IMG/VR virus record: IMGVR_UViG_3300032213_001151
Location: 1-60,484 of that record
DNA length: 60,484 bases
Source of the DNA: a virus
Taxonomy: Duplodnaviria; Caudoviricetes
Reading direction: 5' to 3' (one strand)
Shown: positions 503 to 59,807 of the stretch, in pieces
How the letters are laid out: every line of letters starts with the position of its first letter
Position numbering within the stretch: position 1 is the stretch's first letter
The notes under the pieces: model-generated
The model's database searches: none
What the model was told of the DNA's origin: nothing
What the model saw: the letters and a program-made list of their open reading frames with translations, nothing else
Position numbers and translations under genes: made by a program

Positions 503-518
503 GTGTCCTCAAAGACAC
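503..518. repeat. 16-bp palindrome site 1 (GTGTCCTCAAAGACAC)
   Basis: Intergenic; extended by GGGTA/TACCC arms (498-523). Confidence 0.95.
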
Positions 519-536
519 TACCCGTGTTGTTGTTGG

Positions 537-1205
537 TTAATTTTCACCCCCTCTGTTGGCAAGTGCTGCCTTCAGGAACTCAAGTGCAAAGTTTAGCTCT
601 TCGTCACTGTTCTGCGTGGTCACAGTGCCGTTGGTGTCTACCCTCACAGCTACGTTTCTGCCAAGGTCCAAGTCAGCAGCCTTGAAAGACATTATGAAGA
701 CTGTCGCAGTGCGCACTTCCACTTCGGGGGTGCTGTCTTCGCCTTCCTCATTTCCACTGCCTTCACCCTCACCTTTTCCGCTGCCTGCGGTCTCTGCTGC
801 TGCACGTGCAAACTTCAATAAGCCCTCAAGTGTTCTGTTAGGCTCTTGCCCTTCTGCCTCTGCCTCGTCACACTTGGTGTTGAACAAGTTAATTGTTTCT
901 TGTGGCAGTTTGCCTGCCTTCAACACTTTGTAGAAGTAGCTTTTTTGCCACCCGAAAACTTTCTTTCCAAACTCTTCGTTGGACCAAGAAACGCCTTCCT
1001 CGCGGAAAACTGCCTTGCCTTCGTCAGACGAAAACCATTCGTGTGCCTTCAACACCAACTTGCTCAAGGCAATTGTGTTGGTGAACTTGCTCTTTTGTGC
1101 GTTGGTGAGAGTGCGCTGCACCTTGCGAATCTCTGTGATGTTCAAACCTGCCTTCACTTGTGGTAAGGCTAAAAGTGCGGTCTCGATTGTTAGTAACTGT
1201 GTCAT
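537..1205 (-). CDS. Early protein with possible helix-turn-helix and an acidic Gly-rich linker
   Basis: 222-aa ORF; segment WSNEEFGKKVFGWQKSYFYKVLK looks HTH-like; follows a TAnnTTTG element. Confidence 0.7.
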   Translation of the reverse strand: MTQLLTIETALLALPQVKAGLNITEIRKVQRTLTNAQKSKFTNTIALSKLVLKAHEWFSSDEGKAVFREEGVSWSNEEFGKKVFGWQKSYFYKVLKAGKLPQETINLFNTKCDEAEAEGQEPNRTLEGLLKFARAAAETAGSGKGEGEGSGNEEGEDSTPEVEVRTATVFIMSFKAADLDLGRNVAVRVDTNGTVTTQNSDEELNFALEFLKAALANRGGEN

Positions 1206-1257
1206 ATTTAATTAGTTAAGTGGTTTTTTCGTGTTGCCGCCTCGTTCATTGGCGGTA

Positions 1258-1265
1258 CAAACATA
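1258..1265 (-). promoter_or_regulatory. Bacteroidota-type -7 promoter element (TATGTTTG)
   Basis: Matches TAnnTTTG upstream of the first - strand gene; context resembles 53561, 57404 and 58542. Confidence 0.65.
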
Positions 1266-1469
1266 GTATATAGTTTGTATATTACCATACATTGAGCAAA
1301 AATTTTTTAGTTTTTTTATTCATTGCCATATTCAGTGCGTCCGCTTTCCCTTGTCCCGCTTGCGTTTGCGCTTGGTACATTGCCCGTAAAAAAATTATAA
1401 AGTTTTTTTGTGGCACATGGGCTAAGCAAGGCTTACCCTTGTGTAGCAAGGGTTTGAGGCTCGTTTGTA

Positions 1470-1485
1470 GTGTCTTTGAGGACAC
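1470..1485. repeat. 16-bp palindrome site 2 (GTGTCTTTGAGGACAC)
   Basis: Non-coding; reverse complement of site 1. Confidence 0.95.
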
Positions 1486-1529
1486 AAAACGTATGCAGAC
1501 AGTGCGCATACTGTATGTATCAGGTATGA

Positions 1530-1643
1530 AAGGCAAGCAGGCAGGCAGCAAGGCAGGGCAAGCAAGCAGGCAAGGCAGGAACAAGGCAGCGCAAGCAGGT
1601 ATGCAAGGCAGGCATGAGCACTATGCAGGCAGGCAGGCAGGGC
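1530..1643. repeat. Low-complexity AGGC/AAGC/GCAG tandem array
   Basis: aggcaagcaggcaggcagcaaggcagggcaagcaagcaggcaaggcagg... Confidence 0.85.
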
Positions 1644-1787
1644 TGCCATAGAAAAAGCCAAAAAGTTTGCAGTGCGCAGCGCAAAGGGTGACCCCCACCC
1701 CTTGGGCAGGGGGGTGCTTCCGCAGGGGGGGCGCTTGGCGCAGGACGGGGGGGAACCCTAATAGTCAGCATATCTAATAAAAAGTTG

Positions 1788-1795
1788 TACCTTTG
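1788..1795 (+). promoter_or_regulatory. -7 promoter element TACCTTTG
   Basis: TAnnTTTG followed 4 nt later by ATG 1800. Confidence 0.65.
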
Positions 1796-1799
1796 TTAT

Positions 1800-2015
1800 A
1801 TGAAAAAGGGAATTGGAAAGATGAGCATAATGGGTCAGCCGGGGTTGACTGTAAGAAATGGTCGATTGATTAACAATCTTCCTGATGGCACGATGGGTAT
1901 TCAAGCAGCAGCAGATGCGAGGAAGTTGAGAAGGAAAGAGGAGAAGATTGAGATGATGGTTGAAGCTGATGTACGTGCGAGTATGAGAGAAAAGTTGCTT
2001 GGGTTGGAAAGTTAA
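1800..2015 (+). CDS. Hypothetical protein (71 aa)
   Basis: ORF 1785..2015 with start moved to ATG 1800; bounded by promoter and terminator. Confidence 0.7.
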   Translation: MKKGIGKMSIMGQPGLTVRNGRLINNLPDGTMGIQAAADARKLRRKEEKIEMMVEADVRASMREKLLGLES

Positions 2016-2046
2016 CCCGCTTCATATATTTTGTTGTTTGTTACAG

Positions 2047-2074
2047 AGAGGGTAGAGATACCCTCTTTTTTTTT
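2047..2074 (+). terminator. Intrinsic terminator
   Basis: AGAGGGTA-gaga-TACCCTCT followed by a T-run. Confidence 0.85.
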
Positions 2075-2368
2075 AGTGTCGTTTTAAAAATTCTTTTGTT
2101 AATGGTTGGCTATTAGATTGGTCTTTCTAAGAGTTTTAGTATTTGTATTATTAGTATCTATAAATATCTATTGATATTATTTTGTCATTAGAATGACTAT
2201 TTTAATGTCAATAATAAATAGATAAGTTATTGATTAATAATAGTTCTGTCGAAAATGTTAAAAATAAGAGAAGTTTCTAACTATAAAAAAAAATAATATA
2301 AAGGAGGAGAGAGAGAGAGAATAGGGGGAGATAAAAATCACACATTGCATATTTGGTGTTAAAGGATA

Positions 2369-2376
2369 TATCTTTG
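2369..2376 (+). promoter_or_regulatory. -7 promoter element TATCTTTG for groEL
   Basis: TAnnTTTG 22 nt before the groEL ATG. Confidence 0.65.
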
Positions 2377-2398
2377 CCACAATCAAATTAAATCAATC

Positions 2399-4018
2399 AT
2401 GATAGACAATGGCATGGGGTATTCCCCGAAGGACCTTCAGTTTGGAGAAGAGGGTCGTAAGAAACTAATCAGTGGTATTTCAAAAATTGCAACTGCAGTC
2501 AAGAGCACATTAGGACCGAGGGGTAACACTGTGTTGATTGAGTCGCCATCACACACGAGCAGTATAACTGTGACCAAGGATGGTGTGACGGTAGCCAAGT
2601 CAATTGACTTGATGGACCCTGTAGAGAACCTTGCGGTAAGGATGATGAAGGAGGCAGCAGACAAGACTGCCAACTCAGCGGGTGATGGTACGACAACTGC
2701 CATTGTGTTGACTGAGGCTATTGTCAAAGCGGGTGACGAGTTGATGGACAGTGACACGAACAGGACGCTTGTGTTGCGAGAGATTGTGGAGATGGGCAAC
2801 AAGATAGTGGAGAAGCTTGCGCAAAAGAACGTGAAGCTAACCGAGCACACCTTGTTGGATGTAGCTAAAATCTCTGCGAACAATGACAAGACTATTGGTG
2901 AGACCATTGCCAAGGTATACAAAGAGATTGGTGAGAATGGTATTGTGACAGTAGAGAAGTCGCAGACCACTGAGACATATGCTGAGTCAACGCACGGGTT
3001 CAAGGTACAGAGAGGGTACTACTCACCGCTGTTCATCAATGACCAAAAGAAGGACGAGTGCATCTATGAGGATGTGATGGTGCTAATCAGTGACGCTGAG
3101 ATACACAACTTGCTGCAGATTGAGCCGGTGCTGAAACCAATTATCCAAGAGGGTAAGAAGCTTCTGATTATTGCTCCGTGCTCAGTGAACGTGGTGAACA
3201 CATTGGCTGCGAATGTGGTGAAGAACAACCTGAAGGTATGTGCGATTGAGCCACCATCATTCGGGTATAAGAAGCATGAGCTGATGCAAGACATTGCCTT
3301 GGCTGTGGGTGCTAAGTATTTCTCAGAGAAGACAGGTGACGACTTGAGCCTAATCTCGTATGCTGACCTTGGTCATGCTGCAAAGATTATCATTGACTCG
3401 AAGAGCACTGTGATAATCAACTCTGAGTTCAGAACAGACTTTGAGGAGATTGACAACAGGGTTGCTCAGTTGTGGGAGGCGCACAAGGCTGCCAACAAGA
3501 AGCATGAGAAGGAGTTCATCCTCTCAAGGATAGCATCACTGACAGGTGGCGTTGGTGTCATCTACGTAGGTGGTACAACTGACATAGAGCAGAAGGAGCT
3601 GTATGACCGTGTCGATGACGCAGTGTGTGCAGTACGTTCAGCATTAGAGGAGGGCATCCTTCCCGGTGCAGGCAAAGCGTTATTCGAGGAGGCACTTGCT
3701 ATTGTTGGCGAGGCTAATGACAGCAAGGAGAGAACTATTGCCAAGAAGATTCTTCACACCGCACTTCAGATACCGCTGATGCAGATACTGCTGAACGCAG
3801 GCATGAACGGGCATGAGGTGTATGCTGATGCGAATATGCGTCAGTCAGGTCGTGGGTACAATGTGGTGACAGGGACCTATGGTGACCTGATTGAGATGGG
3901 TGTGATTGACCCGGTGAAGGTGACAAGGTCAGCCCTGCAGAATGCAATCAGTGTGGCAACAACAATCCTATCAACCAACGCCATCATCACAATGGCGAGA
4001 ACATACGATACAAAATGA
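2399..4018 (+). CDS. groEL: Chaperonin GroEL (Cpn60)
   Basis: TLGPRG, TKDGVTVA, AGDGTTTA, EEGILPGAG and GVIDPVKVTR motifs. Confidence 0.98.
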   Translation: MIDNGMGYSPKDLQFGEEGRKKLISGISKIATAVKSTLGPRGNTVLIESPSHTSSITVTKDGVTVAKSIDLMDPVENLAVRMMKEAADKTANSAGDGTTTAIVLTEAIVKAGDELMDSDTNRTLVLREIVEMGNKIVEKLAQKNVKLTEHTLLDVAKISANNDKTIGETIAKVYKEIGENGIVTVEKSQTTETYAESTHGFKVQRGYYSPLFINDQKKDECIYEDVMVLISDAEIHNLLQIEPVLKPIIQEGKKLLIIAPCSVNVVNTLAANVVKNNLKVCAIEPPSFGYKKHELMQDIALAVGAKYFSEKTGDDLSLISYADLGHAAKIIIDSKSTVIINSEFRTDFEEIDNRVAQLWEAHKAANKKHEKEFILSRIASLTGGVGVIYVGGTTDIEQKELYDRVDDAVCAVRSALEEGILPGAGKALFEEALAIVGEANDSKERTIAKKILHTALQIPLMQILLNAGMNGHEVYADANMRQSGRGYNVVTGTYGDLIEMGVIDPVKVTRSALQNAISVATTILSTNAIITMARTYDTK

Positions 4019-5226: not shown

Positions 5227-5574
5227 ATGAAGGATGCCTGCTACAAAAAAGTGAAAGCACAGTACAATATATTCCCATCTGCACGTGCATCACAGGCTAT
5301 TGCCAAGTGTCGCAAGGAATCGGGCAGTGTTCGCAAGGGTGAGGCAGGCACATCACTGAAAAGATGGCAGAATGAGAAGTGGGTTGACACCAAATCAGGC
5401 AAACCATGTGGTGCAGGTGGCAAGAATGAGTACTGTCGTCCATCAAAGAGAGTGTCTTCAAAGACACCCGTGACGAAATCGGAGTTGAGTTCGTCAAAGC
5501 TTGCAGCAAAGAAAGCAGAGAAGTCAAGAGTGGGTATGGGAAATCGTGTCTCAAACATTAATAAAAAAAAATAG
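5227..5574 (+). CDS. Small basic protein (SLKRWQNEKWVD...CG...YCRP)
   Basis: 115-aa ORF in operon context. Confidence 0.8.
   Translation: MKDACYKKVKAQYNIFPSARASQAIAKCRKESGSVRKGEAGTSLKRWQNEKWVDTKSGKPCGAGGKNEYCRPSKRVSSKTPVTKSELSSSKLAAKKAEKSRVGMGNRVSNINKKK
5452..5467. repeat. 16-bp palindrome site 3 (GTGTCTTCAAAGACAC)
   Basis: Inside CDS, read as VSSKT. Confidence 0.95.
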
Positions 5575-13384: not shown

Positions 13385-15608
13385 TCTTTACTATGTAGTT
13401 GAGGACTATATTCCTAAGAAAACAATTTCGACTAAGAACCGCAATCGTAGTTGGGTATATGGATATGACCCACAGCACGATGTTGTCGTTATATCTAAGA
13501 CAGGTCAGATTGGAGATGTTCTGAATATCAGGGGTCTTCACATAGCATTACCTGCTGCTCCGGAAAAGTGTCTTCAAAGACACACTAAAGCATCTGAGCA
13601 ATATTGGGAAAGAGAAGAACTTCCTGTTCCTTTATCCAAAATCAATTCAATCTTTCAGTGGAATGAGATGCCCAATCAGTTTAAGAATAGTTGGGTGGAC
13701 TACATTGAGGAACAGTTTGATAGAAGAGAGCAAGGGCTATGGTTCATGAACAATGGACAGCCAACATATATCACGGGAGCACACTATATGTATCTGCAGT
13801 GGTCCAAGATTGATGTAGGATACCCTGACTTCAGAGAGGCAAATAGAATACTGTACATCTTTTGGGAAGCCTGTAAAGCTGACATTCGTTCTTTCGGAAT
13901 GATATATCTTAAGATAAGGCGTTCAGGATTCTCCTTTATGTCATCATCTGAATGCGTAAACATTGCAACCCTTGCAAGAGATGCTCGCATAGGTATATTG
14001 TCTAAGACGGGAGCAGACGCTAAGAAGATGTTCACCGACAAGGTGGTCCCTATCAGTACGAACCTTCCATTCTTTTTCAAGCCTGTGCAAGATGGTATGG
14101 ATAAGCCAAAGACAGAGTTGGCATATCGTGTACCTGCTTCTAAGATTACCAAGAAGAATATGTCTGAGACATCGAATGATGAGATGGATGGCTTGGATAC
14201 CACAATCGATTGGAAGAATACAGAGGACAACTCATATGATGGTGAGAAGCTATTGTTCTTAGCACATGATGAAAGTGGGAAGTGGGTGAAGCCCGTAAAC
14301 ATCCTGAACAATTGGCGTGTTACTAAAACGTGTCTGCGTCTTGGTAGCAAGATTATTGGTAAGTGCATGATGGGTTCAACATCAAACGCATTGTCAAAGG
14401 GTGGTGACAACTTCAAGAAGATGTATGAGGACTCACGTGTATCCTCAAGAAATGCCAACGGTCAAACAAAGTCAGGTCTATACGCACTGTTCATTCCTAT
14501 GGAGTGGAACATGGAAGGCTTTATAGATAGGTATGGTATGCCTGTGCTACGTAAGCCGACTCAGCCTGTTCGTGGAGTTGACGACAATTGGATTATGAAT
14601 GGGGCTATTGACTATTGGGAAGCTGAAGTAGAATCTCTGAAGTCTGATGCAGATGCATTGAACGAATTCTATCGTCAGTTCCCAAGAACAGAGTCCCATG
14701 CTTTCAGAGATGAGAGCAAAGCTGCACTATTCAATCTAACAAAGATTTATCAGCAGATAGATTATAATGACTCGTTGATTCAAGAGCACCACATGACTCG
14801 TGGTTCTTTCCATTGGAAAGATGGGATAAAGGACTCAAAGGTTATATGGTCCCCTGACTCACGTGGCAGGTTCTTGGTGTCTTGGATACCCGGAAAGAAT
14901 TATCAAAACAGAGTTATTGACCGCAATGGAATGAAGTTTCCCGGCAATGACCACATGGGCGCATTCGGTTGTGACTCATATGACATATCAGGTGTTGTTG
15001 TTGGCAAAGGTTCCAATGGTGCATTGCATGGATTGACAGGATACCATGTTGATGAGGGACCTATAAATACTTTCTTCCTTGAATACATTGCTCGTCCACA
15101 GACTGCAGAGATATTCTTTGAAGAAGTGTTGATGGCAATAGCATTTTATGGAATGCCTATCTTGGTGGAGAACAACAAGCCAAGACTTTTGTATCATTTA
15201 AAGAATAGAGGATACAGAGGGTTCTGTCTCAATCGTCCTGACAAGCCATACACCAAGCTGTCTAAGACTGAACGTGAGCTTGGTGGTATACCAAACTCAT
15301 CAGAAGATGTTAAGCAGGCACACGCAGCAGCGATTGAGTCTTACATTGAGAAGCATATCGGTCTTGACTTAGAAGGAAAGTATAGGGACCCTGAAGAGAT
15401 GGGCACTATGCCATTCGTGCGCACATTGGAAGATTGGGCTAAATTTGACATAAACAATCGTACAATGTTTGACGCATCTATCAGTTCGGGGTTGGCAATT
15501 ATGGCAACTCAAAAACATCTGTATCAACCTGAGAAAACACAATCAAAAATTAGCATTAACTTTGCTACATATAACAATAAGGGGACTATAAGCCAAATCA
15601 ATAGATGA
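13320..15608 (+). CDS. terL: Terminase large subunit (start uncertain)
   Basis: KIRRSGFS Walker A, LAHDESGKW Walker B, GST, GCDSYD nuclease motif. Confidence 0.9.
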   Translation: MTMEMESLNQNKGLQNEGQENSLYYVVEDYIPKKTISTKNRNRSWVYGYDPQHDVVVISKTGQIGDVLNIRGLHIALPAAPEKCLQRHTKASEQYWEREELPVPLSKINSIFQWNEMPNQFKNSWVDYIEEQFDRREQGLWFMNNGQPTYITGAHYMYLQWSKIDVGYPDFREANRILYIFWEACKADIRSFGMIYLKIRRSGFSFMSSSECVNIATLARDARIGILSKTGADAKKMFTDKVVPISTNLPFFFKPVQDGMDKPKTELAYRVPASKITKKNMSETSNDEMDGLDTTIDWKNTEDNSYDGEKLLFLAHDESGKWVKPVNILNNWRVTKTCLRLGSKIIGKCMMGSTSNALSKGGDNFKKMYEDSRVSSRNANGQTKSGLYALFIPMEWNMEGFIDRYGMPVLRKPTQPVRGVDDNWIMNGAIDYWEAEVESLKSDADALNEFYRQFPRTESHAFRDESKAALFNLTKIYQQIDYNDSLIQEHHMTRGSFHWKDGIKDSKVIWSPDSRGRFLVSWIPGKNYQNRVIDRNGMKFPGNDHMGAFGCDSYDISGVVVGKGSNGALHGLTGYHVDEGPINTFFLEYIARPQTAEIFFEEVLMAIAFYGMPILVENNKPRLLYHLKNRGYRGFCLNRPDKPYTKLSKTERELGGIPNSSEDVKQAHAAAIESYIEKHIGLDLEGKYRDPEEMGTMPFVRTLEDWAKFDINNRTMFDASISSGLAIMATQKHLYQPEKTQSKISINFATYNNKGTISQINR
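13568..13583. repeat. 16-bp palindrome site 4 (GTGTCTTCAAAGACAC)
   Basis: Inside terL, read as CLQRH. Confidence 0.95.
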
Positions 15609-30607: not shown

Positions 30608-31018
30608 ATGGTATTCAGAATTGAGCCAATAAAAGAAACCGATTACGATGACTTTCTCGTAGGATGGTGGGAATCATGGGGGTGGGAGCCACCACACAGA
30701 GATTTCCTTCCTGATAATGGGACGGGTGGAGTTTGTGTCTTTGAAGACACTACTCCTATTTGTGCGGGATTTCTTTATACCACCAACAGTGGTGTAGCTT
30801 GGGTCGATTGGGTAGTGTCAAGTAAAGAGTACAGAAAGAAGCCACAACGCCAACAGGCAATTGGCTTACTTGTTGAGACTCTTACAAACATTGCAAAGAG
30901 AACCGGACATAAATACACTTATGCCCTGATAAAGCATAGAGGTCTTATTGAGACATATAAATCTCTTGGCTACATCGAGGGTGATAAGTACACAACAGAA
31001 ATGATAAAAGTATTTTAA
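30608..31018 (+). CDS. GNAT-fold acetyltransferase-like protein
   Basis: VVSSKEYRKK...YKSLGY pattern; TATCTTTG at 30594-30601. Confidence 0.7.
   Translation: MVFRIEPIKETDYDDFLVGWWESWGWEPPHRDFLPDNGTGGVCVFEDTTPICAGFLYTTNSGVAWVDWVVSSKEYRKKPQRQQAIGLLVETLTNIAKRTGHKYTYALIKHRGLIETYKSLGYIEGDKYTTEMIKVF
30735..30750. repeat. 16-bp palindrome site 6 (GTGTCTTTGAAGACAC)
   Basis: Inside CDS, read as VFEDT. Confidence 0.95.
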
Positions 31019-36800: not shown

Positions 36801-39800
36801 ACGTGTAATGCAATTGCTATCTGCAAGGAATGAGTTGTCTTCTACACAGAACAGAAAAGAGATAAATGGTGATAAGATACGTGCAATCAACAAAGAGATT
36901 GCAACTATCTCCGAGACCAAGAAACTTCTTCCTGATAACAAAGATGTTGCCGGTGATGGTGTAACCACTGCTGTGAATCTTGACGCAATTATTGGAACAG
37001 AAAGGCAAGGTGTATCACTGTATAAGATAGGTGGTAAGACATTCACCCGTGAACAATTCTTGAGTGAATTGGACAAAATGAAAAACAGAAGGCTTCTTCG
37101 TGCTCGTGTGGATATAAAGAACGATGAGGAAGCTATAAAGATTTACAATAATAAATTAAACAATGCCATTCAAAAGCAAAGCCCAAGTGCGATTTCTATT
37201 CAGTCAGAAACCGGAGTTAGCAAAACGGTGGAGGAAGGAAAACCCCAAACAGAACTTGAAGTCACTACCGAAGAAACTCAAGTCACAGTCCCAAAAGAAG
37301 AAGTAGCAAAAGCAGAAGAAGATTTAGTGTCTTCAAAGACACGGCTTGATGAGCTTGCTGATGCTATACCACAGCGTATTGACTACACTGAGGATGACCT
37401 AACAAACTTTGATGCATTAGAGCAGCAGAAAGCTGATGGTGTTATAACCGCATTGGCTGAGAAAGTTGCTGAAGGGACCAAGCTATCAACTACTGAGAAG
37501 CAGGTGTATAATGCGAACAAAGAAAAGGTTGATGGCGTATCCCAATTGGTTGCAGAGAAAACTTCAATCGAGGAAGAGGTTGCTGACCTTGAGGCTATGC
37601 TAAAGCCAAGAGCAGAGTTCCGTGCTGAAGAAAGAGTTGTTCCTGCTAAGATTGAAAATGCTATAACTGAAGATGGAGAGGTTGATTTCGAAGCAGAAGA
37701 CCAAGTCCGTAAAATTGCAAATGAAAGGAACATCGGTATTACAAGAGACCGTGAGATTGCTTATGTGGCACGTGATGAACAAGGCAATGTAGTCGGTGGT
37801 GCTTTTACTTCATATGACAATCAGACAGGAAAATATACTTTTGATGTAGTTGTAACCAAAGAAGCTGAGGGAAAAGGCATAGGCAGCAAGCTATTGGATG
37901 CTGTTCAAAATATCCCTTCAGATATAGCTGAAATGAATCCCGATGCTACTGTAGAGGTTGATGTCGTAAACCCACAGATGCAGCGTATGTTGTCTAAAAG
38001 AGGGTTTGAAGTTTCTGAAAAAATAGGAGAGGAACGTGTACTTATGGTTCCCGGAAAGAAATCAAAGACAGAGTTCCGTGCTGAAGAGACAACTGCAGAA
38101 GCACCTATCGATGAAGTCGAGGCAATAACTGATGCCATCAATCAGATTGTATCAGGTAATGTATCAACTGAGCTTGCACCTGAATCTACTGAAGGGACCG
38201 TTGATGTTACTGACCTTAGTAAAAGAACAGGTCAAGCTGTACCAACTGTTAGCTTTAAAATTGTAGAAGGTGTTCCGGTTATCTTCACCATCTCTGACCA
38301 ACTTACCACAGGAGAGATTGTAAATCCACAAACAGGAAGAGCTATAGGTAACTTGATGGGTGGTATAGGATTCAACTTCATGAATCAAAATGCTGCTTGG
38401 GCATATACCACTGAGAAGAAAGCATCAGAATCCTTAAAAAAAGCCAAAAAAGTTTACAAAGAGAATAAGCAAACAATAGAGGAGTTTTGGAAAAACAATC
38501 CCGAATACAATGGTCTTGTTCCAATGATGGTTGTGAAGATGGGAGAAGGCTCAATACTATCAAATGAAGCTACAGCCCGTGTCCTTTCAGACAACATACA
38601 AGAATTTCCTGAAGCTAATCGAAAAAGAGCATTAGCTGTTCTTCAGAAAGAACTTACTAATGAGATAAAGTCTCTTACTAAAAGAGCAGATGCTGCAAAA
38701 AGCGTACTTACAAAAAGGAACTATCAAAAAGAAGCAAGTGGGTATCAGAATATTCTTGACCTTATAGCCAAGAACAATATTCAAACGATTGAGCAATTGC
38801 TTGCTCCTGAAGTTTTCACTCAGATAGAGAACCTTAATGCACGTAAGGATATTGTGAATATGATTGGCTATGGCAAACCTAATCTTCCTCGTGAGAAGAA
38901 GGCAATGTCAAAGCCAACCAAGAACTCATTGGTTGCTCGTGCTATCATTGGCATACCGGCTAATCAAGAGGTGAAAGACATTAATCCAAACAAGAGATAT
39001 GAGCTTTTAAACTTAGGAGAAGTAACCAATACGATTACTGAGTCAACAATTGCCGACATATCTAATCGCAGTATCGTGAGCATAGTGGGTGTAGATGTAT
39101 TGAATCCTCGTATTTTGAATACAGAGAATGGTGATTTCAACCATCCAAACTATCAGTATGGATTGGCAGGAAAGTCAATAGGTATTCTACAGGAGCCAAT
39201 TTCAATCGTGAAAGCATACCCTGAAGCGTATAATCTTGCGCTGAAAGGTCTAATAAAAGAAGAATCAAAATTTGTAAAACCAATAAAAGATGGCAAAAAA
39301 ATTGTTAAGCCCGGCAACAGACTCTTCAATCAGTCTATCCCGGAAGCTTCGGAAATTGCGGATAGATATTATGAAAGAACCTATGGGCGAAAGCGTCCTC
39401 GGTACTATGGCTCAAGGTCAATCGACAAAGCAAGAGCCAAAAGAATAGCGGATTCATTCGCTAAGATGGCAGACAATCCGACTGCCCCTGATGTGAAAAA
39501 AGCTTATGAGGCTATGGCACGAGAAACCCTTGAGCAGTATAAATATATGCTTGATGCGGGTTATGTTGTTGAGATAAACAACAATGAGCCATATGGCAAT
39601 TCACGTGAGATGGTTGATGACTTGCGTAATAACAAGCGCATGAAAATCTTCTCTACTGAATCAGGGTTTGGAGATGAAAAGATTACACCTGAACAACGAG
39701 AAAAGAATGTACTACTTCGTGAATCAGGATTCTACGATATTAACGGTGAGACATTGTTGGTTAATGATGTATTCCGTGCTGTCCATGATTTCTTTGGTCA

Positions 39801-44433: not shown

Positions 44434-44457
44434 GTGAGTGTCTTTGAGGACACTCAC
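44434..44457. terminator. Hairpin at the convergence of both transcription units, built on palindrome site 8 (44438-44453)
   Basis: GTGA-GTGTCTTTGAGGACAC-TCAC; T-run follows on the - strand. Confidence 0.75.
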
Positions 44458-45357: not shown

Positions 45358-46836
45358 TTACAATATTAGCAAATCTCTTTTAAAGTGAGAAACAGTGTAG
45401 TCCTTTTTCTTGGACACAGCCTTATGTATCAGGTCCTCAATGCCACCGTTTGAGAATATCCAATACACCTCATTCTCAAGCCTGTCCTTGGTTGTCATCC
45501 TATCACGGCTCTGCCAATAGCTCGTGGCACTGAAGTCAATGTTGTAGTACACGAGACACTCAGCCTTCTTCAATGATATACCTTCTCTGCCTGAGACAAT
45601 CTGCAATGCTATGCTCTTGTCGGTGTCTTCAAAGACACTTAGCTCGGTGGTCAATGAGTCTCCGAATACCTGCTGCAATGCATTGAGTTCTTCTTTGAAC
45701 TTGTAGAAGATACCAATCTTGCGGTACTTGAACCGTTCCTTTATGTACTTTGCTTTGCTCAGGTCAACCACCATTGACTTACCACTCTCAAACTTTATGG
45801 TCCCGCTGTACAGTTGGTGAAGCTTGCTCATGAGTTTCACCGGTGTATCACCCAATATCACCTCTGACTTACCACTGATGACCAAGTCCTTCTTCAATCT
45901 TGAAATCAACTTATAGGTTGATTCCTCTAAGTCTACCCGCAGAATCTCCTCGGTTGTCTTTACTACAAACCCTGAGTCCTGCTGCGACCACCTGATTGTG
46001 TATGGAAGCATCGCATCAATGATGGTCTGATGCCCATTTGAGTAGTCGTTCACAATCATCCCGTTTATTTTCTTCTGCGTTTTATTAACGTAGTCATCAG
46101 CAAAACGGTAGAAGTTGCTGTACTTCTTAAATGGATTACTTCCAATGCCATAGACTTGATGAAACATTTGAGAGTATGACTCAGGGGTTGGTGTACCTGA
46201 CAGCAGTATCACTCTGCTGTTTGAGTCTCTCACCAAGTCTCTAACTTGCATAGCTCTAAGACTTGGCTTTGGGAAAGCTCCCATGCTGTGCGCCTCATCG
46301 CATATGATGACATCCCACTTTACTTGAGGCAGCTTGTGTATGCTCTCGTAGTTCATAACGAACAATGCATATGACGGGCATAGCTTGTCTGCGTCTTGTG
46401 TGATTGAGCTGATGGCTTTCTTCTTGGTCAGGAACAGAACGTGCTCTACGTTTGGTAGGTTGTCGCAGATGCTAAGGCTCGTCAAAGTCTTACCTGTTCT
46501 GACTTCCATCGCAAGGTATACAAATCCATGTTCGTTAATTATTTCTGATGCTTTTGAGACGATACTCTTTTGGTAGTCTCTTAATTCAATTTGATTATTC
46601 ATTTCGTGTTCGTGTAATTTTTTATAGTACTCTATACTTCTCTCCAATCTATCTACTACATCTTTGGCTACATTATGCTTTAGGACCCTCTCTGTTAAAC
46701 TTTTATTACCCCTGCGTACCTTCACCTCTCTCGTGTCCATAATAATGCCGTAGAGGACCTCGCATCGCTTTAGCATATCAAGGTTAGAGTACGCAGGGAT
46801 TCTTTCAATAAGGTCCATGCCTTTGTAGTCCATCAT
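45358..46836 (-). CDS. SF2 (SNF2-like) helicase
   Basis: RTGKT, DEAH, SGTP, GREGISL, QSRDR. Confidence 0.9.
   Translation of the reverse strand: MMDYKGMDLIERIPAYSNLDMLKRCEVLYGIIMDTREVKVRRGNKSLTERVLKHNVAKDVVDRLERSIEYYKKLHEHEMNNQIELRDYQKSIVSKASEIINEHGFVYLAMEVRTGKTLTSLSICDNLPNVEHVLFLTKKKAISSITQDADKLCPSYALFVMNYESIHKLPQVKWDVIICDEAHSMGAFPKPSLRAMQVRDLVRDSNSRVILLSGTPTPESYSQMFHQVYGIGSNPFKKYSNFYRFADDYVNKTQKKINGMIVNDYSNGHQTIIDAMLPYTIRWSQQDSGFVVKTTEEILRVDLEESTYKLISRLKKDLVISGKSEVILGDTPVKLMSKLHQLYSGTIKFESGKSMVVDLSKAKYIKERFKYRKIGIFYKFKEELNALQQVFGDSLTTELSVFEDTDKSIALQIVSGREGISLKKAECLVYYNIDFSATSYWQSRDRMTTKDRLENEVYWIFSNGGIEDLIHKAVSKKKDYTVSHFKRDLLIL
45623..45638. repeat. 16-bp palindrome site 9 (GTGTCTTCAAAGACAC)
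   Basis: Inside the helicase gene, read as VFEDT. Confidence 0.95.
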
Positions 46837-49767: not shown

Positions 49768-49786
49768 ATGTTTTTTGTTTAGGGTT

Positions 49787-51135: not shown

Positions 51136-51152
51136 GTTGTTGTTTGTTTCTA

Positions 51153-51331: not shown

Positions 51332-51338
51332 TTGATGA

Positions 51339-51617
51339 TTATTTGGTATCGCTTATGTCTTGGTACTTCTCTATGATAATCAAGCAAGTGTCACCAACCT
51401 TCCATCTGCCATCGTATTCAAATGGTATTGAGACTTCTCTTGTATGCTTAGCTGTTTGCACCCATATCTTAGGAAGAGTTCTGTACCTTGAGCCTATATA
51501 TCCACTTTGTGTTGCTGAGATTTTACCATCGATAACTTCCATGCCAATGTACTGTAGATTGTCAGAACATGACAGCAGAAAGATTGATAGGAACAGTGTC
51601 TTCAAAGACACACTCAT
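51339..51617 (-). CDS. Putative lipoprotein (92 aa)
   Basis: MSVSLKTLFLSIFLLSC signal with lipobox-like LLSC. Confidence 0.65.
   Translation of the reverse strand: MSVSLKTLFLSIFLLSCSDNLQYIGMEVIDGKISATQSGYIGSRYRTLPKIWVQTAKHTREVSIPFEYDGRWKVGDTCLIIIEKYQDISDTK
51596..51611. repeat. 16-bp palindrome site 10 (GTGTCTTCAAAGACAC)
   Basis: First codons of the lipoprotein gene (VSLKT). Confidence 0.95.
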
Positions 51618-53341: not shown

Positions 53342-53530
53342 TTAGTGGATTGGTTTGTCGAGAACTTCAGGGCGCATGATAGCACCAAGTTCTTCGAATA
53401 GATTGTTGAATGTGGCAGGCTTGCCTTGGCTGACTTCGTACTCGTGTTCAGTAGTGTCTTTGAAGACACGGTAGTCTACATCATCATGAGACTCCTGCTC
53501 ACGAATAGCTATGAATAATCTTTTTGACAT
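53342..53530 (-). CDS. Hypothetical protein
   Basis: 62 aa, first gene after the promoter. Confidence 0.65.
   Translation of the reverse strand: MSKRLFIAIREQESHDDVDYRVFKDTTEHEYEVSQGKPATFNNLFEELGAIMRPEVLDKPIH
53454..53469. repeat. 16-bp palindrome site 11 (GTGTCTTTGAAGACAC)
   Basis: Inside CDS, read as VFKDT. Confidence 0.95.
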
Positions 53531-56092: not shown

Positions 56093-56136
56093 TGGCAGGC
56101 GTGGGAGGAATCGAACCCCCCAATAACCATTCGCCT
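56093..56136 (-). ncRNA. tRNA-like minihelix (44 nt) ending GCCA
   Basis: AGGCG-AATGGTTAT-TGGGGGG-TTCGATT-CCTCCCA-CGCCT-G-CCA. Confidence 0.65.
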
Positions 56137-56137
56137 T

Positions 56138-56153
56138 GTGTCTTTGAAGACAC
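56138..56153. repeat. 16-bp palindrome site 12 (GTGTCTTTGAAGACAC)
   Basis: Between the GATase-GGCT stop and the minihelix. Confidence 0.95.
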
Positions 56154-57272: not shown

Positions 57273-57288
57273 GTGTCTTTGAAGACAC
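57273..57288. repeat. 16-bp palindrome site 13 (GTGTCTTTGAAGACAC)
   Basis: Between the tRNA-like CCA end and the GATase start. Confidence 0.95.
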
Positions 57289-57298: not shown

Positions 57299-57372
57299 TG
57301 GCAGTCAGGGCAGGATTCGAACCTACACAATAGGGCATCGCCCATAGCGTTTACCAATTTCGCCACCTGACT
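57299..57372 (-). tRNA. Atypical tRNA-like RNA (74 nt), isotype undetermined
   Basis: AGTCAGG/CCTGACT acceptor, GCGAAATTGGTAAACGC D arm, GTAGG-TTCGAAT-CCTGC T arm, G-CCA; short aberrant anticodon region. Confidence 0.7.
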
Positions 57373-57403: not shown

Positions 57404-57435
57404 CAAAGGTAATACATATTGTGAACATCACCAAA
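57404..57435 (-). promoter_or_regulatory. Promoter TTTG-N20-TACCTTTG
   Basis: Full -33/-7 consensus upstream of the tRNA-like RNA. Confidence 0.8.
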
Positions 57436-58233: not shown

Positions 58234-58234
58234 G

Positions 58235-58513
58235 TTACTTGTAATTAAAGTACCTCTTTAGCTCGGTGATTTGGTCTTGCAGTTCACCGTTCTCTGCATC
58301 GTAGTAGAAGGTCTCTTCTACCCATCTGAAGAAGGCAGCCATCTGCCCTTGCATCCCCTCGGACAGCACATTGAACAGCTCCCTTGCCTGCGTGTGCTGC
58401 CCGTTGGCTCTGCTCTCCATGATGTACATGAAGAACTCCTCAACACTGTTGAATTCCAATTCAACGATTTTGTTTCTCAACTCTAAGTCCTTGTGCTCTG
58501 TTATTTGTATCAT
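58235..58513 (-). CDS. Hypothetical protein
   Basis: Start set at MIQIT, downstream of the promoter. Confidence 0.7.
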   Translation of the reverse strand: MIQITEHKDLELRNKIVELEFNSVEEFFMYIMESRANGQHTQARELFNVLSEGMQGQMAAFFRWVEETFYYDAENGELQDQITELKRYFNYK

Positions 58514-58541
58514 ATTGTTTGTTGTTTGTTTGTTTCGGGTA

Positions 58542-58573
58542 CAAAGGTAGTACATAGTTTGTATATATGCAAA
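58542..58573 (-). promoter_or_regulatory. Promoter TTTG-N20-TACCTTTG
   Basis: Full -33/-7 consensus. Confidence 0.8.
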
Positions 58574-58783
58574 TTATTTTTCAACTTTTTTTTCATCGCT
58601 GTGAATCCTTACTGCGAGGACGGTTACGTTCTTTGCTGACACCTGACCCCACCCCGCTGAACCTTTGCGTATGTAGAACAGTCTGCCATCATGGCTAAGG
58701 CTTGCCCACTGCTCATATAGATGCAGTGGGAGCCTTGCTATTGGCTTGTCTATCCTTATCAGGTACACGTTTGTCTTTATCAT
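58574..58783 (-). CDS. Hypothetical protein
   Basis: 69 aa, coupled to the upstream gene. Confidence 0.6.
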   Translation of the reverse strand: MIKTNVYLIRIDKPIARLPLHLYEQWASLSHDGRLFYIRKGSAGWGQVSAKNVTVLAVRIHSDEKKVEK

Positions 58784-59061
58784 CTGCCACCCCCCTGCAA
58801 TAAGGTCTTGAACCCATTGTACACGTTGCGTTTGTACGCCTGACTTTGGTAGTCAAATTTGTTCGACATCAGTATGCTCGTGATGCTGCAAAATCTTATC
58901 TCAATTTGATGCAGCACCTCTTCGAAGGTCTTGCCGTCCATGAGATTCTTAATCACCTCATCACGTGTGCTCACGATAGGGTTGTCGAATGTGCCGTTGG
59001 CTTTTGCGTTGATGTGCGCATCAGCAATGGCTTTTACTTGTTTTGAAATGCGTGTTGTCAT
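58780..59061 (-). CDS. Hypothetical protein
   Basis: 93 aa, directly after hammerhead A. Confidence 0.7.
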   Translation of the reverse strand: MTTRISKQVKAIADAHINAKANGTFDNPIVSTRDEVIKNLMDGKTFEEVLHQIEIRFCSITSILMSNKFDYQSQAYKRNVYNGFKTLLQGGGR

Positions 59062-59086
59062 ATCTGTTTTTTGTTATTGGTTGTTT

Positions 59087-59135
59087 GTGTTTCGTCCTTT
59101 CGGACTCATCAGCCTGAGCACTCACTCAGGGACAC
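59087..59135 (-). ncRNA. Type III hammerhead ribozyme A
   Basis: GUGUC^CCUGAG-UGAGUG-CUCAGG-CUGAUGA-GUCC-GAAA-GGAC-GAA-ACAC. Confidence 0.95.
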
Positions 59136-59141
59136 GGGGCA

Positions 59142-59157
59142 GTGTCTTTGAAGACAC
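59142..59157. repeat. 16-bp palindrome site 14 (GTGTCTTTGAAGACAC)
   Basis: Apex of a GGGGUG...UGCCCC hairpin abutting hammerhead A. Confidence 0.95.
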
Positions 59158-59183
59158 CACCCCTACTCACTACCACATGAGTA

Positions 59184-59501
59184 TTATCTTTCAGGGAACA
59201 CGTGTGCCCATATTGAGTTGTCACTTACCCACTCATCAGCAGGAACGCGTGGTGCAAGCCAATTCAGTGCGTCAATTATCACCTGACTTGTTGTCGGGTC
59301 ACCCTCCCAATCGTTCATGTAGGTCTTGTCCTCAGACAGTTCGTCCCATATGTAGTTGTTCAGGTCGCAGTCATTGAGATTGCGTTGGTAGTACGTGGTG
59401 ATGTAGTGTTCACCGTTGTGGTGTAGGCTCGCTACTCCACCGTCTTCGGTAATGATGTCCAATGACTCATCAACTTGGCTTTGGATTACTCTGTATTTCA
59501 T
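59184..59501 (-). CDS. Acidic hypothetical protein
   Basis: 105 aa between the hammerheads. Confidence 0.7.
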   Translation of the reverse strand: MKYRVIQSQVDESLDIITEDGGVASLHHNGEHYITTYYQRNLNDCDLNNYIWDELSEDKTYMNDWEGDPTTSQVIIDALNWLAPRVPADEWVSDNSIWAHVFPER

Positions 59502-59701
59502 GCTGTTAGGTATGGTGTTGGGTTAATGTTGTAGGTCTTGCATAGGTTAACGATAACAGATGCTTGTTGTGTGTAGATGACAGCGTCAAACCTTTCGGCA
59601 GCCACTTCTATCCATTTTTGTGCGGTCTCATAGGTGTTGAACATCTTGATGTGAATCGTGTCCTCGTCTTGGTCAACGCAGGCGGTCCAATGTGTTGTCA
59701 T
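59498..59701 (-). CDS. Hypothetical protein
   Basis: 67 aa between the hammerheads. Confidence 0.7.
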   Translation of the reverse strand: MTTHWTACVDQDEDTIHIKMFNTYETAQKWIEVAAERFDAVIYTQQASVIVNLCKTYNINPTPYLTA

Positions 59702-59732
59702 ATTTGTGTGTTGTTTGTTGGTTTAGTCGGTT

Positions 59733-59783
59733 GCTGTTTCGTCCTTTTGGACTCGTCAGGGACAGTGCTCACTGTCCGACAGC
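59733..59783 (-). ncRNA. Type III hammerhead ribozyme B
   Basis: GCUGUC^GGACAG-UGAGCA-CUGUCC-CUGACGA-GUCC-AAAA-GGAC-GAA-ACAGC. Confidence 0.95.
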
Positions 59784-59791
59784 GGGGGGAA

Positions 59792-59807
59792 GTGTCCTTG
59801 AAGACAC
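59792..59807. repeat. 16-bp palindrome site 15 (GTGTCCTTGAAGACAC)
   Basis: Apex of a G/C-rich hairpin abutting hammerhead B. Confidence 0.95.

Follow-up and report, generated by a model that had tools for sequence, protein, structure and literature searches.

What a 16-bp palindrome that recurs throughout a phage genome does, and what reads it, is the question raised by the stretch of DNA analyzed here (the window, 60,484 nt), which comprises a complete, circularly closed phage genome of 60,361 bp plus a 123-bp end repeat. A pattern search across the window returned exactly 15 matches to GTGTCYTYRARGACAC, recovering all the copies reported in the initial annotation, versus 0 in 100 dinucleotide-preserving shuffles; allowing up to three mismatches added just two weak sites, at 27924 and 29967. 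The core reads GTGTCTT-CA/TG-AAGACAC. Four copies (503, 1470, 44438, and 59792) carry one transition each, and the half-site rule GTGTCTTY, with the dyad running through the center, covers all four centers seen (CA, TG, TA, and CG). The palindrome was not found in the published literature, in agreement with the earlier remark that it was not recognized as a described motif. The copies and their associated elements are as follows.

503..518: motif copy, variant GTGTCCTCAAAGACAC on the plus strand; intergenic, with the gpA stop codon 18 nt before it and the start of gpX, the gene spanning the genome ends, 27 nt after it
537..1205, minus strand: gpA, first gene of the leftward early operon; orphan family, candidate motif reader
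1470..1485: motif copy, variant with one transition; within non-coding, repeat-rich DNA that separates the leftward early operon from the rightward genes
5452..5467: motif copy; within the DUF5872 gene 5227-5574(+), read as VSSKT
13568..13583: motif copy; within the large terminase gene 13320-15608(+), read as (K)CLQRH with frozen codons
20677..20692, plus strand: motif copy; tip of a terminator-like hairpin, 22 nt past the capsid-like gene 19206-20654
30735..30750: motif copy; within gene 30608-31018(+), read as VFEDT
37327..37342: motif copy; within the giant gene 33868-44430(+), virion-type, 3520 aa, read as VSSKT
44438..44453: motif copy, variant; where convergent genes meet, 7 nt past the stop of the giant gene and abutting that of 44454-44876(-)
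45623..45638: motif copy; within the helicase gene 45358-46836(-), read as VFEDT
51596..51611: motif copy, core only, without stem extension; follows the exonuclease gene 51619-52359(-), 7 nt past its stop
53454..53469: motif copy; in the gap separating 53606-53992(-) from 53032-53340(-), core only
56093..56137, minus strand: tRNA-like minihelix; acceptor-type stem, T-arm, and CCA-like end, without D or anticodon arm
56138..56153, minus strand: motif copy; 2 nt past the stop of the amidotransferase/GGCT gene 56156-57250(-), with the minihelix 2 nt on
57273..57288, minus strand: motif copy; 10 nt past the tRNA-like gene and 22 nt ahead of the start of 56156-57250(-)
57299..57372, minus strand: tRNA-like gene; aberrant short anticodon loop, no anticodon by ARAGORN, Rfam tRNA 44.8 bits
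59084..59138, minus strand: hammerhead type III-like ribozyme; its 41.4 bits (E 1.3e-5) fall short of the Rfam gathering score, 48.5
59142..59157, minus strand: motif copy; tip of an extended hairpin, with the hammerhead starting 3 nt downstream
59731..59785, minus strand: hammerhead type III-like ribozyme; its 41.6 bits (E 1.1e-5) likewise fall short of the gathering score
59792..59807, minus strand: motif copy, variant with sense-strand U-G; capping a G/C-rich hairpin

Because the record is circularly closed, copies 503 and 1470 share the leftward early region with copy 59792, which follows the gpX stop by 15 nt and precedes a hammerhead by 6 nt. Roughly 265 nt separate copy 1470 from the gpA start codon downstream of it; the copy lies past a candidate Bacteroidota -7 box (1258-1265, minus strand) and has a counterpart upstream of gpA in the related genomes G001 to G004; the only candidate early promoter found lies between the gpA start and this copy. 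Supported genes contain five copies (5452, 13568, 30735, 37327, and 45623, spanning three reading phases) rather than the seven initially counted, and copies 1470, 51596, and 53454 fall inside small unsupported ORFs only. Late-region spacing is 6.6 to 10.1 kb, as had been claimed, but the tighter early-region spacing is broken by one gap of 5,973 bp (45623 to 51596). The center is indeed found in either orientation with respect to transcription, with CA on the sense strand at nine and TG at four of 13 copies (the copy at the convergent junction, 44438, and copy 1470 were left out). Genes for a Sak-type annealing protein and for an exonuclease are also present.

The same motif, as GTGTCTTYRAAGACAC, occurs at syntenic places in four related phages of ~60 kb, with 8 to 13 copies each: GTGTC-N6-GACAC was counted 11, 11, 13, and 8 times in G001 through G004 and 0 times in G005, and the reversed pattern, serving as a control, 0 times in each of the five. 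All four fetched relatives have the terminase, DUF5872, helicase, and post-capsid sites; the giant-gene region holds one copy per fetched relative (a same-region match, not position-matched to 37327), and copy 30735 has no equivalent at that place in any of the four. With at least 119 stretches bearing the motif in a scan of viral contigs, it is common to related phages. It does not appear to be a host repeat: the genome-scan matches listed are scattered single copies in unrelated taxa, with the exception of one contig of 56,458 bp in a Cytophagales MAG bin; it has five copies and is probably a phage of the window's family.

Between lineages the palindrome is switched as a set, and other lineages carry a different palindrome or none. 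MW202828, the closest relative by terminase in the phage collection (77.6% amino acid identity), has 14 copies of GTGTCGTTAACGACAC, all within 11.4 kb of early genes; G006 has five copies of TGTCTCTTCGAAGAGACA, all within 5 kb; and G007 has three copies of AGTCTGTT-SG-AACAGACT. The terminase and DUF5872 sites were lost jointly in L077, L087, and G008. The G003 terminase is closer to that of G005 (85%) than to that of the window (78%); G003 nevertheless carries gpA as well as the motif at its terminase site, and G005 lacks both.

The palindrome is genuine and syntenic, and selection on it acts on nucleotides. CLQRH is encoded by 29 of 77 distinct 180-nt terminase stretches, in 28 cases with the codons TGT CTT CAA AGA CAC; where the preceding residue is Lys (16/29), its codon is AAG in every case, versus two to five codons at the conserved residues flanking the site. 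At the helicase and DUF5872 sites, lineages without the motif retain similar peptides by other codons, as with SVFEET in the G006 helicase. These frozen codons, together with the recoding of similar peptides in motif-free lineages, indicate selection on the nucleic acid rather than the peptide, as the initial annotation had proposed.

The motif sites are located at transcript boundaries, namely, in terminator tips, in hairpins just 5' of hammerheads, at tRNA-like elements, 2 to 26 nt past stop codons, and ~20 nt before start codons. At many intergenic sites, the motif is the invariant tip of a longer sense-strand hairpin. At copy 20677, the stem is extended by GGGGA/TCCCC and followed by a T run; at copy 503, it is lengthened by five flanking base pairs; at copy 57273, the flanks GGGTTCT/TGCCC are kept in relatives; and at copy 44438, with its stem extension GTGA/TCAC, a T run on the minus strand gives the element the look of a leftward-operon terminator. 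A motif copy lies 0 to 22 nt 5' of the hammerhead in 7/8 matches in relatives and 2/2 in the window, and it is placed 5' of the ribozyme in every case. The post-capsid terminator is present in 11/11 compared genomes, with the motif tip only in window-type lineages and G007, and G002 has one ribozyme whose upstream hairpin is without the motif; hence, the hairpins pre-exist the motif. In 20 hairpin-plus-ribozyme elements, 97.5% of cells are paired overall (matched by 0/500 shuffles), and 13 pairs in the three ribozyme helices have changed on both sides, whereas five of the six core pairs of the motif helix are invariant and the sixth deviates once, as U-G. Free covariation in the ribozyme helices, against none in the motif helix, means that selection acts on the sequence itself and not on pairing alone.

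We regard it as quite possible, if somewhat short of probable, that the palindrome is the recognition site of one phage-encoded factor, a homodimer of gpA on duplex DNA, which would tag transcript boundaries; the existence of a reader, its identity as gpA, its recognition of DNA instead of RNA, and its blocking of elongation are all steps that we infer. The product of this first early gene would bind the dyad as a homodimer and halt or slow host RNA polymerase at motif sites, and a roadblock-type regulon of this kind, comparable to that of the Cluster A mycobacteriophage stoperators, would set the timing of early and late operons or silence them. Sites would be lodged in the tips of the post-capsid terminator, the leftward-operon terminator, and the hairpins preceding hammerheads and tRNA-like signals, presumably because a hairpin that is already there can take a palindrome into its tip at no cost, and, where intergenic room is absent, in a few permissive codon runs. 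Against this model, an elongation roadblock within essential genes of a lytic phage would need a relief mechanism. The ORFs scanned include no integrase or clear repressor, such that a lysogeny-type silencing role is unsupported.

Motif copies lie on both sides of gpA, and the central dyad and the gpA homodimer model together suggest that the palindrome may be a duplex DNA site for a dimeric protein. The median score of this model is 0.46 (best control, 0.00), a mark reached by 20/30 proteins solved as one-chain pairs and 1/23 solved as single chains, with partner pLDDT of at least 80 and contacts agreeing at ≥96% between runs. Residues 76 to 98 form a putative helix-turn-helix-like segment, read from the model's helices alone, that is almost wholly outside the modeled interface. 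The gene is present in 10/10 complete or near-complete window-type genomes (the window, G001 to G004, and G016 to G020, the last five each with at least one documented motif copy) and absent from the motif-free complete genome G005 and from fragments G021, G022, and G024; it is also absent from G023, a 66%-complete fragment with five motif copies. Two variant-motif genomes have a counterpart with 28 to 29% identity and a different helix-turn-helix-like helix. This correlation is confounded, in that gpA is inside the early region holding most copies and the motif-free set has one complete genome. Pfam gave no match for the window's gpA, a best E value of 0.026 over the 41 members of A2, and a best of 0.0038 over 10 of the 150 library matches listed; Foldseek against the PDB gave no structural match and BFVD no named match, and the sole lead, from the ESM-Atlas, is a neighbor cluster with DUF3102 in 29% of its members.

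Less likely, in our judgment, though still a serious contender, is that the functional form is a sense-strand RNA hairpin with a 6-bp stem (often 10 to 12 bp) and a UYRA loop, the invariant tip of which would be bound by a phage RNA-binding protein or nuclease, possibly still gpA. Binding could cap the 3' ends that remain after termination, self-cleavage by hammerheads, and RNase P/Z cuts at tRNA-like elements and so protect processed mRNA, or it could modulate termination or the translation of the next gene ~20 nt downstream. The placement of hammerheads just 3' of the motif speaks for this, as do the contexts of 108 unique intergenic sites, 47 with T-run terminators, 17 with a hammerhead directly downstream, and two adjacent to tRNA-like elements; in MW202828, moreover, most intergenic copies are directly past a stop codon and 16 to 23 nt ahead of a start codon. 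Stem extensions covary and prefer G-U on the sense strand: standard pairs make up 73% of flank pairs in the terminator class and 65% in the ribozyme class, and G-U exceeds A-C by 41:3 and 13:6, respectively, although shuffled partners give 14% G-U and 9.5% A-C, so that flank composition alone accounts for part of the excess. The sense-strand center is CA rather than TG at 66 versus 17 intergenic sites (CA 43, TA 15, TG 5, and CG 1 in the terminator and ribozyme classes; CA 14, TA 3, and TG 0 beside ribozymes), but shared descent of homologous sites may explain much of this bias, and in L140 the centers CA, TG, and CG all share one gene-proximal context. Intergenic one-mismatch variants (n = 5) comprise four G-U, no A-C, and one other on the sense strand, whereas those of coding copies give A-C or mismatches, and ribosomes would unwind coding copies in any case. 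Two hairpins are stable as RNA (−23.6 kcal/mol, z −6.4, for copy 20677, and −15.9 kcal/mol, z −4.8), and whole-stretch folds at two coding sites reach −9.5 and −9.8 kcal/mol (z −2.2 and −1.5); stem extension is absent at 105 coding and 42 "other" intergenic copies, such that 147 of 213 oriented unique sites are core-only and would make weak hairpins. Also against RNA, a loop needs no self-complementarity, yet positions 7 to 10 follow the dyad (T, Y, R, A); A-form stems are seldom read in a sequence-specific way; and the copy 5' of gpA, in repeat-rich non-coding DNA, lies upstream of the candidate promoter.

We consider three further explanations improbable to different degrees. T4-type phages have promoter/stem-loop cassettes, and REP elements are also known; the palindrome copies would resemble either if, as is improbable, they had no dedicated reader and were boundary cassettes kept alike by recombination or copying, serving as generic hairpins and short homologies for early-gene shuffling. 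The early region is indeed hypervariable, with most small early ORFs lacking a counterpart in relatives, MW202828 and L140 have copies at almost every early gene junction with flanks alike past the core, and the annealing protein and exonuclease are compatible with such copying. Coding copies, however, arose in place by substitution without length change, with codons frozen over 29 terminase sequences; hammerhead helices a few bases away drift freely, which argues against local homogenization; conversion of 16 bp would hardly keep late sites 7 to 10 kb apart alike; and the ORFs scanned include no RAYT or HUH-type transposase. Even less probable is the parS/matS-like, genome-organizing, self-marking, or nicking site that the initial annotation had preferred to a simple operator, whether for organization, segregation, packaging, or condensation or for specific nicking or base modification. 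Dyad symmetry, the possibly dimeric binder, intragenic copies where intergenic room is absent, and the fairly even late-region spacing in the window would suit it, but this spacing is not preserved in relatives (gaps of 15 to 16 kb, with copy 30735 unique to the window), the contexts are all transcript boundaries, no feature suggests segregation, packaging, or nicks, a palindrome would be nicked on both strands, and a non-exhaustive scan of the ORFs found no ParB- or MatP-type domain. The confinement of all 14 MW202828 copies to ~11 kb of early genes, like that of 5/5 in G006, is a poor fit to a genome-wide organizer. Least probable of all is that a host regulator, termination factor, or nuclease reads the site and that lineage differences are host differences: set-wise switching is also expected from host change, and the motif sits in terminators that the host polymerase uses, but no host genome among the genome-scan matches listed has many copies, and motif state differs between phages with near-identical structural genes.

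The palindrome GTGTCYTYRARGACAC has exactly 15 matches in the window and none in 100 dinucleotide-preserving shuffles, and a search with three mismatches allowed adds only two weak sites; the 15 copies of the initial annotation are thus recovered exactly, positions included. The core of the motif, GTGTCTT-CA/TG-AAGACAC, is a 7+2+7 dyad. The window is an entire IMG/VR virus record whose ends are direct repeats of 123 bp, so that the genome is 60,361 bp in length and one gene (gpX) crosses the record ends. Rightward genes occupy ~2.4 to 44.4 kb (GroEL, large terminase, portal, capsid-like, and giant protein), and leftward genes run from 44.45 kb through the record end to ~1.2 kb, including a helicase, a primase-helicase, an exonuclease, a Sak-type annealing protein, and many small ORFs. 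The genes to which we refer by coordinate are as follows:

2399-4018, + strand: GroEL (PHROG 5725, E = 2.6e-132)
4015-4290, + strand: ORF after GroEL, whose counterpart in phage MW202828 is annotated as a 10-kDa co-chaperonin
13320-15608, + strand: large terminase
19206-20654, rightward: capsid-like gene
33868-44430, + strand: giant gene (3520 aa), with only a GNAT acetyltransferase domain (~residues 1286 to 1381) and one unknown PHROG
537-1205, − strand: gpA
2-475 plus 59823-60482, − strand: gpX, one gene of ~336 aa split by the record ends

The giant protein is poorly kept among relatives (31 to 42% over short stretches), and its gene has no megablast match in phage records. The cumulative GC skew of the window turns at ~44 kb.

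With ORFs taken as simple longest-ORF calls, 5 of the 15 copies lie in supported genes, where they encode VSSKT (twice), CLQRH (once), and VFEDT (twice) in three phases; the other 10 are intergenic or in unsupported small ORFs. Seven genic copies in different frames had been reported: the different frames stand, but the number in supported genes is five.

A terminase search of viral contigs gave more than 600 relatives. The closest named phage is MW202828.1 (77.6% amino-acid identity), followed, at no more than 44% identity, by phages of Flavobacterium, Cellulophaga, Tenacibaculum, and Maribacter. The pattern GTGTC-N6-GACAC occurs 11, 11, 13, and 8 times in four relatives (G001 to G004) and 0 times in a fifth (G005), and the reversed pattern, used as a control, occurs 0 times throughout the same genomes. 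Nearly all of the relatives' copies read GTGTCTT-YR-AAGACAC, with CA, TG, TA, or CG at the center. Copies in the terminase (codons ~84 to 88), in the DUF5872 gene, in the helicase, and at a post-capsid site are syntenic in all four motif-bearing relatives, in which gpA, gpX, and the amidotransferase/GGCT gene also have copies beside them; the expectation that close relatives would hold a comparable dispersed motif is therefore borne out. At least 119 stretches with the motif were found in a scan of viral contigs. Among the matches listed from 185,579 species genomes, there are scattered single copies in unrelated taxa and no known host repeat, an origin that would have removed the novelty claimed for the motif at the outset. 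The exception among these matches is WTJX01000555.1 (56,458 bp, Cytophagales MAG bin), which has five copies and matches these phages in size; it probably derives from a member of the window's family, and its binning is a weak hint as to the host group.

Three lineages carry variant palindromes. In MW202828, GTGTCGTTAACGACAC occurs 14 times without a mismatch, always within 43.7 to 55.2 kb and mostly directly 3′ of a stop codon and 16 to 23 nt 5′ of the next ATG. G006 has five copies of TGTCTCTTCGAAGAGACA in its early region, and G007 has three copies of AGTCTGTT-SG-AACAGACT, one of which forms the tip of the post-capsid terminator. When aligned on their centers, the variants depart from the window motif in one to three positions of the half-site (−2, −3, and −5, plus −8 in G006), and every half-site change is mirrored on the opposite arm. 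The first 50 kb of an Elemo-type Flavobacterium phage hold no comparable motif. In line with the initial view that the motif is not a described one, the three motif strings occur nowhere in the literature searched, and a search of it on palindromes of phage early regions likewise brought up nothing about this system.

The coding copies allow selection on DNA or RNA within coding sequence to be read directly from frozen codons, which is a rare case. At the terminase site, 29 of the 77 distinct 180-nt stretches encode CLQRH, and 28 of these 29 use the codons TGT CTT CAA AGA CAC; a Lys precedes the peptide in 16 of the 29, always as AAG (16/16), whereas the invariant flanking residues use two to five codons each. 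Motif-less lineages have C-[YFH]-x-R-[SH] at this site, with varied codons. At the helicase site, G006 keeps the peptide SVFEET with different codons, and at the DUF5872 site, four relatives (L161, L087, L077, and G008) have similar peptides without the motif. These observations uphold the proposal that selection acts on the nucleic acid rather than on the peptide. In three of the four (L077, L087, and G008), the terminase copy is missing too; gain or loss thus affects the sites as a set. As read from the sequence, the coding copies are products of substitution, not insertion: existing codons are replaced with the length unchanged, and we reject a mobile palindromic insertion on this ground.

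Across relatives, 213 unique sites from 131 sources were oriented by neighboring ORFs (sense strands being assigned from ORF content), giving 108 intergenic and 105 coding sites, many of which are homologous, so that these counts are not of independent events. A T run follows 47 of the intergenic sites, a hammerhead core follows 17, and a tRNA-like element adjoins 2; the remaining 42 have none of these. Flanks of the T-run class form standard pairs in 73% of cases, with 41 G-U and 3 A-C oppositions on the sense strand; the hammerhead class gives 65% (13 G-U and 6 A-C), and the class with no neighboring element gives 33% (19 G-U and 17 A-C). Shuffled partners yield 40% standard pairs, 14% G-U, and 9.5% A-C. 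Because its flank pairing falls below the shuffled-partner value, the last class consists of core-only sites, and because shuffled partners already give more G-U than A-C, part of the G-U excess reflects base composition.

A G/C-rich hairpin with a U run directly 3′ of a gene, the mark of an intrinsic terminator, is found at copies 20677 and 44438 (− strand) and at the 47 T-run sites among the 108 in relatives; the five coding copies and the core-only intergenic copies lack it. The T runs, in which this reading predicts 3′ ends, lie past 20697 and ahead of 44434. Predicted RNA folds give −23.6 kcal/mol (z = −6.4) for 20677 and −15.9 kcal/mol (z = −4.8) for 44438, versus −9.5 and −9.8 kcal/mol (z = −2.2 and −1.5) for two coding copies folded over the whole stretch. 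The post-capsid terminator is present in 11 of 11 genomes, and its tip is the motif only in the window-type lineages and, in variant form, in G007. Terminator stems normally drift with compensation; here, in contrast, the top 16 nt are constant across phages, and the motif recurs where there is no T run, coding sequence included.

Toward the end of the record, four copies adjoin structured RNA elements:

59084-59138, − strand: type III-like hammerhead (full-length RF00008 match, 41.4 bits), 3 nt downstream of copy 59142
59731-59785, − strand: type III-like hammerhead (full-length RF00008 match, 41.6 bits), 6 nt downstream of copy 59792
57299-57372, − strand: tRNA-like gene (Rfam tRNA, 44.8 bits), ending 10 nt before copy 57273
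56093-56137, − strand: acceptor-stem plus T-arm minihelix, starting 2 nt after copy 56138

Both hammerheads come from a permissive Rfam scan (E ~1e-5) and, like all eight matches in relatives, score under the Rfam gathering threshold of 48.5; both contain the hammerhead core (CUGAUGA, GAAA, and a cleavage triplet) and three covarying helices. Seven of the eight matches in relatives are sited 0 to 22 nt downstream of a motif copy. The eighth (L092; G002 34243-34357, − strand) follows a G/C-rich hairpin with a tip other than the motif, which implies that the hairpin-plus-ribozyme module exists without the tag. When 20 composite elements are aligned, 97.5% of cells are paired (as good in 0 of 500 shuffles), and 13 pairs of the ribozyme helices have had both partners replaced; of the six core pairs in the motif helix, five are invariant and the sixth departs once, as U-G. 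The ribozyme is constrained by structure alone and the motif by sequence, and this is the key internal control of the analysis. The two window hammerheads lie on the same strand in the early intergenic region, where they bracket two small ORFs (59498-59701 and 59184-59501); from their positions, cleavage at both, predicted to fall behind the GUC at ~59131 and ~59778, would release an RNA of ~650 nt with 5′-OH and 2′,3′-cyclic-phosphate ends.

The tRNA-like gene has too short an anticodon loop, and ARAGORN assigns it no anticodon. Its role may be in processing and not in decoding. A Bacteroidota-type −7 box (TACCTTTG, 57404-57411) is located just upstream of it. The minihelix, located between two genes, has a CCA-like end and is without D and anticodon arms; it may serve as an RNase P-type cut mark or be what is left of an attachment site. 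In G006 (~40095-40200; L109:95-200), two copies of that phage's own 18-bp palindrome flank a T-arm/acceptor element, and in the minimum-energy fold they pair together into a duplex of ~21 bp, by its modeled length a candidate RNase III-type substrate.

Hammerheads in phages and prophages, several of them intergenic and flanking single genes or short blocks, have been reported before, with the proposal that they cut long phage transcripts into gene-length mRNAs (Perreault et al. 2011, PMC3088659). An invariant palindromic hairpin fused upstream is the feature of the present elements that the sections of that report on which we draw do not describe (PMC3088659). A ribozyme adjoins only 2 of the 15 window copies, and the finding here, as distinct from that report (PMC3088659), is the palindrome.

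Two genes, gpA and gpX, are common to all window-type genomes and missing from the motif-free G005. The first, gpA, opens the early operon and has motif copies on either side. Its family is an orphan one, with at least 305 clusters at 50% identity: there is no Pfam match (41 members gave no E value better than 0.026, and 10 distant hits gave a best value of 0.0038, under every cutoff), a sequence profile search of the PDB returned nothing, Foldseek found nothing in the PDB at E ≤ 0.001, and BFVD held unnamed homologues only. An ESM-Atlas lead to DUF3102 (29% share) has no backing from Pfam. In the structural model (pLDDT 81), an acidic Gly/Glu linker joins an N-terminal helical domain to a small C-terminal one; residues 76 to 98 are helix-turn-helix-like and almost wholly outside the dimer interface. 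Modeled as a homodimer, gpA has a median score of 0.46 (best control, 0.00), a mark that 20 of 30 proteins solved as same-chain pairs attain, as does 1 of 23 solved as single chains; the partner pLDDT is at least 80, and contact agreement between runs is at least 96%. By model confidence, gpA is predicted to be a homodimer.

The distribution of gpA follows that of the motif. All 10 window-type genomes that are complete or nearly so have it, and G005 and three motif-free fragments do not; five motif-less fragments also lack it but are only 33 to 51% complete, and one fragment with five copies (G023) has no gpA but is only 66% complete. The terminase of G003 is closer to that of G005 (85%) than to that of the window (78%); nevertheless, motif and gpA are common to G003 and the window. 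The gpA proteins of MW202828 and G006 are 28 to 29% identical to that of the window and differ from it in the putative recognition helix; used as queries, the former finds no relatives and the latter only itself. As for gpX, its model (pLDDT 69.9) has weak Foldseek matches (E of 0.3 to 1.3) to PafA, YbdK, and glutamine synthetases, all carboxylate-amine ligases. With no Pfam or PHROG family and with that likeness as a lead only, gpX is unlikely to be the reader. It lies near the amidotransferase/GGCT gene (56156-57250), and together the two presumably recall the amidoligase modules of phages.

Since the motif is invariant per genome, its set of sites switches, its codons are frozen, and the helices nearby drift, we infer a single sequence-specific reader. 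The palindrome is probably a boundary tag with such a dedicated reader, a conclusion common to the DNA and RNA readings of the site. That the reader sees the duplex motif and stops the polymerase there is a serious candidate, to which we give somewhat less than an even chance; gpA, modeled as a dimer, would recognize the dyad in duplex DNA. An RNA hairpin as the object recognized is rather doubtful: many copies are in terminator and ribozyme contexts, flank pairing favors the sense strand, and the sense-strand center is biased to CA in those two classes, but the dyad runs through the center, with a single half-site rule covering all four centers, the majority of sites are core-only, some copies lie within coding sequence, a conserved copy is found upstream of gpA in a non-coding stretch rich in repeats, and the model of the candidate reader is a dimer. 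A larger scheme, improbable as a whole, joins mitochondria-like punctuation of transcripts, an RNA-read self tag, and dosage setting. By this analogy, self-cleaving hammerheads and decoding-incompetent tRNA-like elements would be cut marks in polycistronic transcripts, each cut would be given a sequence-invariant hairpin tag read on RNA by a phage protein, the ends of phage mRNAs would by this tag be known as self and be protected or preferred, unlike host RNA, and the genic palindromes, as DNA or RNA, would set the dosage of the low-copy terminase, helicase, and giant virion protein. A literature search on hammerhead and tRNA-like punctuation in phages gave nothing on this system.

The other readings fare worse. 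REP elements and T4-type promoter-stem-loop cassettes are extragenic palindromes that recur at operon junctions and can stabilize upstream mRNA and promote gene shuffling. The motif is likewise a repeated palindrome at operon junctions, but it consists of 16-bp exact copies that are partly intragenic and arose in place by substitution; a cassette with no reader is quite improbable. With five intragenic copies made by substitution and no RAYT-type (HUH Y1 transposase) gene among the ORFs scanned, we do not assign the motif to the REP/RAYT elements. The parS/matS-like organizer favored by the initial annotation, or a nicking site, is very unlikely: the variant lineages hold all of their copies within a few kilobases of early genes. 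There is no ParB domain in the ORFs scanned, and the sites are dispersed or, in MW202828, between early genes, which argues against a parS/ParB centromere. The host protein MatP reads matS, a 13-bp site of the terminus domain only; the palindrome differs in length and sequence, its copies are not confined to one domain, and host genomes show no motif enrichment among the matches listed from the species-genome scan. That a host factor is the reader seems extremely improbable. An N4-like hairpin promoter for a phage RNA polymerase was also rejected: no RNA polymerase signature or domain was found in the 3520-aa protein, and the G-U bias places the hairpin on the sense, non-template strand. The arm GTGTC resembles a T7 primase recognition site, a likeness that we treat as coincidence.

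The nearest known systems to a genome-wide roadblock are the stoperators of Cluster A mycobacteriophages (L5, Bxb1, and relatives), short sites in many copies throughout the genome that are read by one phage protein, which halts elongating polymerase, and, as these accounts have it, site and reader diverge together by lineage (PMC9283540, PMC6550527). Stoperators are described as asymmetric and bound by a monomeric repressor (PMC9283540), whereas the motif is a 16-bp dyad and its candidate reader is modeled as a homodimer. As with stoperators, copies occur far beyond promoters (15 in the window and 8 to 13 in four relatives), and a single phage reader acting as a roadblock to elongation is predicted here. 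Stoperators number two to three dozen per genome, and the phages that carry them are temperate; for the window phage, neither an integrase nor a recognizable repressor was found among the ORFs scanned, a part of the window's total. A further difference from stoperators is that many copies are RNA hairpin tips beside ribozymes or tRNA-like elements and that five are genic with frozen codons. The conserved inverted repeats (CIRs) of the Streptomyces phage phiC31 offer another comparison: a repressor-bound palindrome of ~17 bp that recurs considerably more than a dozen times in a genome of 41 kb, with many of its copies at the ends of genes and not at promoters, and that could fold as hairpins once transcribed. 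Unlike the motif of the window phage, they belong to the repressor system of a temperate phage with an actinobacterial host, and we know of no ribozyme or tRNA-like link for them.

We regard the motif as a regulon-like tag in a large uncultured freshwater phage family with genomes of ~60 kb, in which terminators, hammerhead ribozymes, and tRNA-like elements are all linked with one palindrome. The orphan early protein gpA, set against three natural site variants, provides a handle that makes specificity swaps feasible. If the reader is confirmed, the gpA family would gain a function, and stoperator-type genome-wide control, known from temperate actinobacteriophages, would reach apparently lytic phages related to those of Bacteroidota. 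The non-coding stretch between the divergent operons (1300-1770), which may be a replication origin or control region, contains short repeats of the GCAGG/CAAGG type (~1520-1650) and a G-rich block (~1680-1760).
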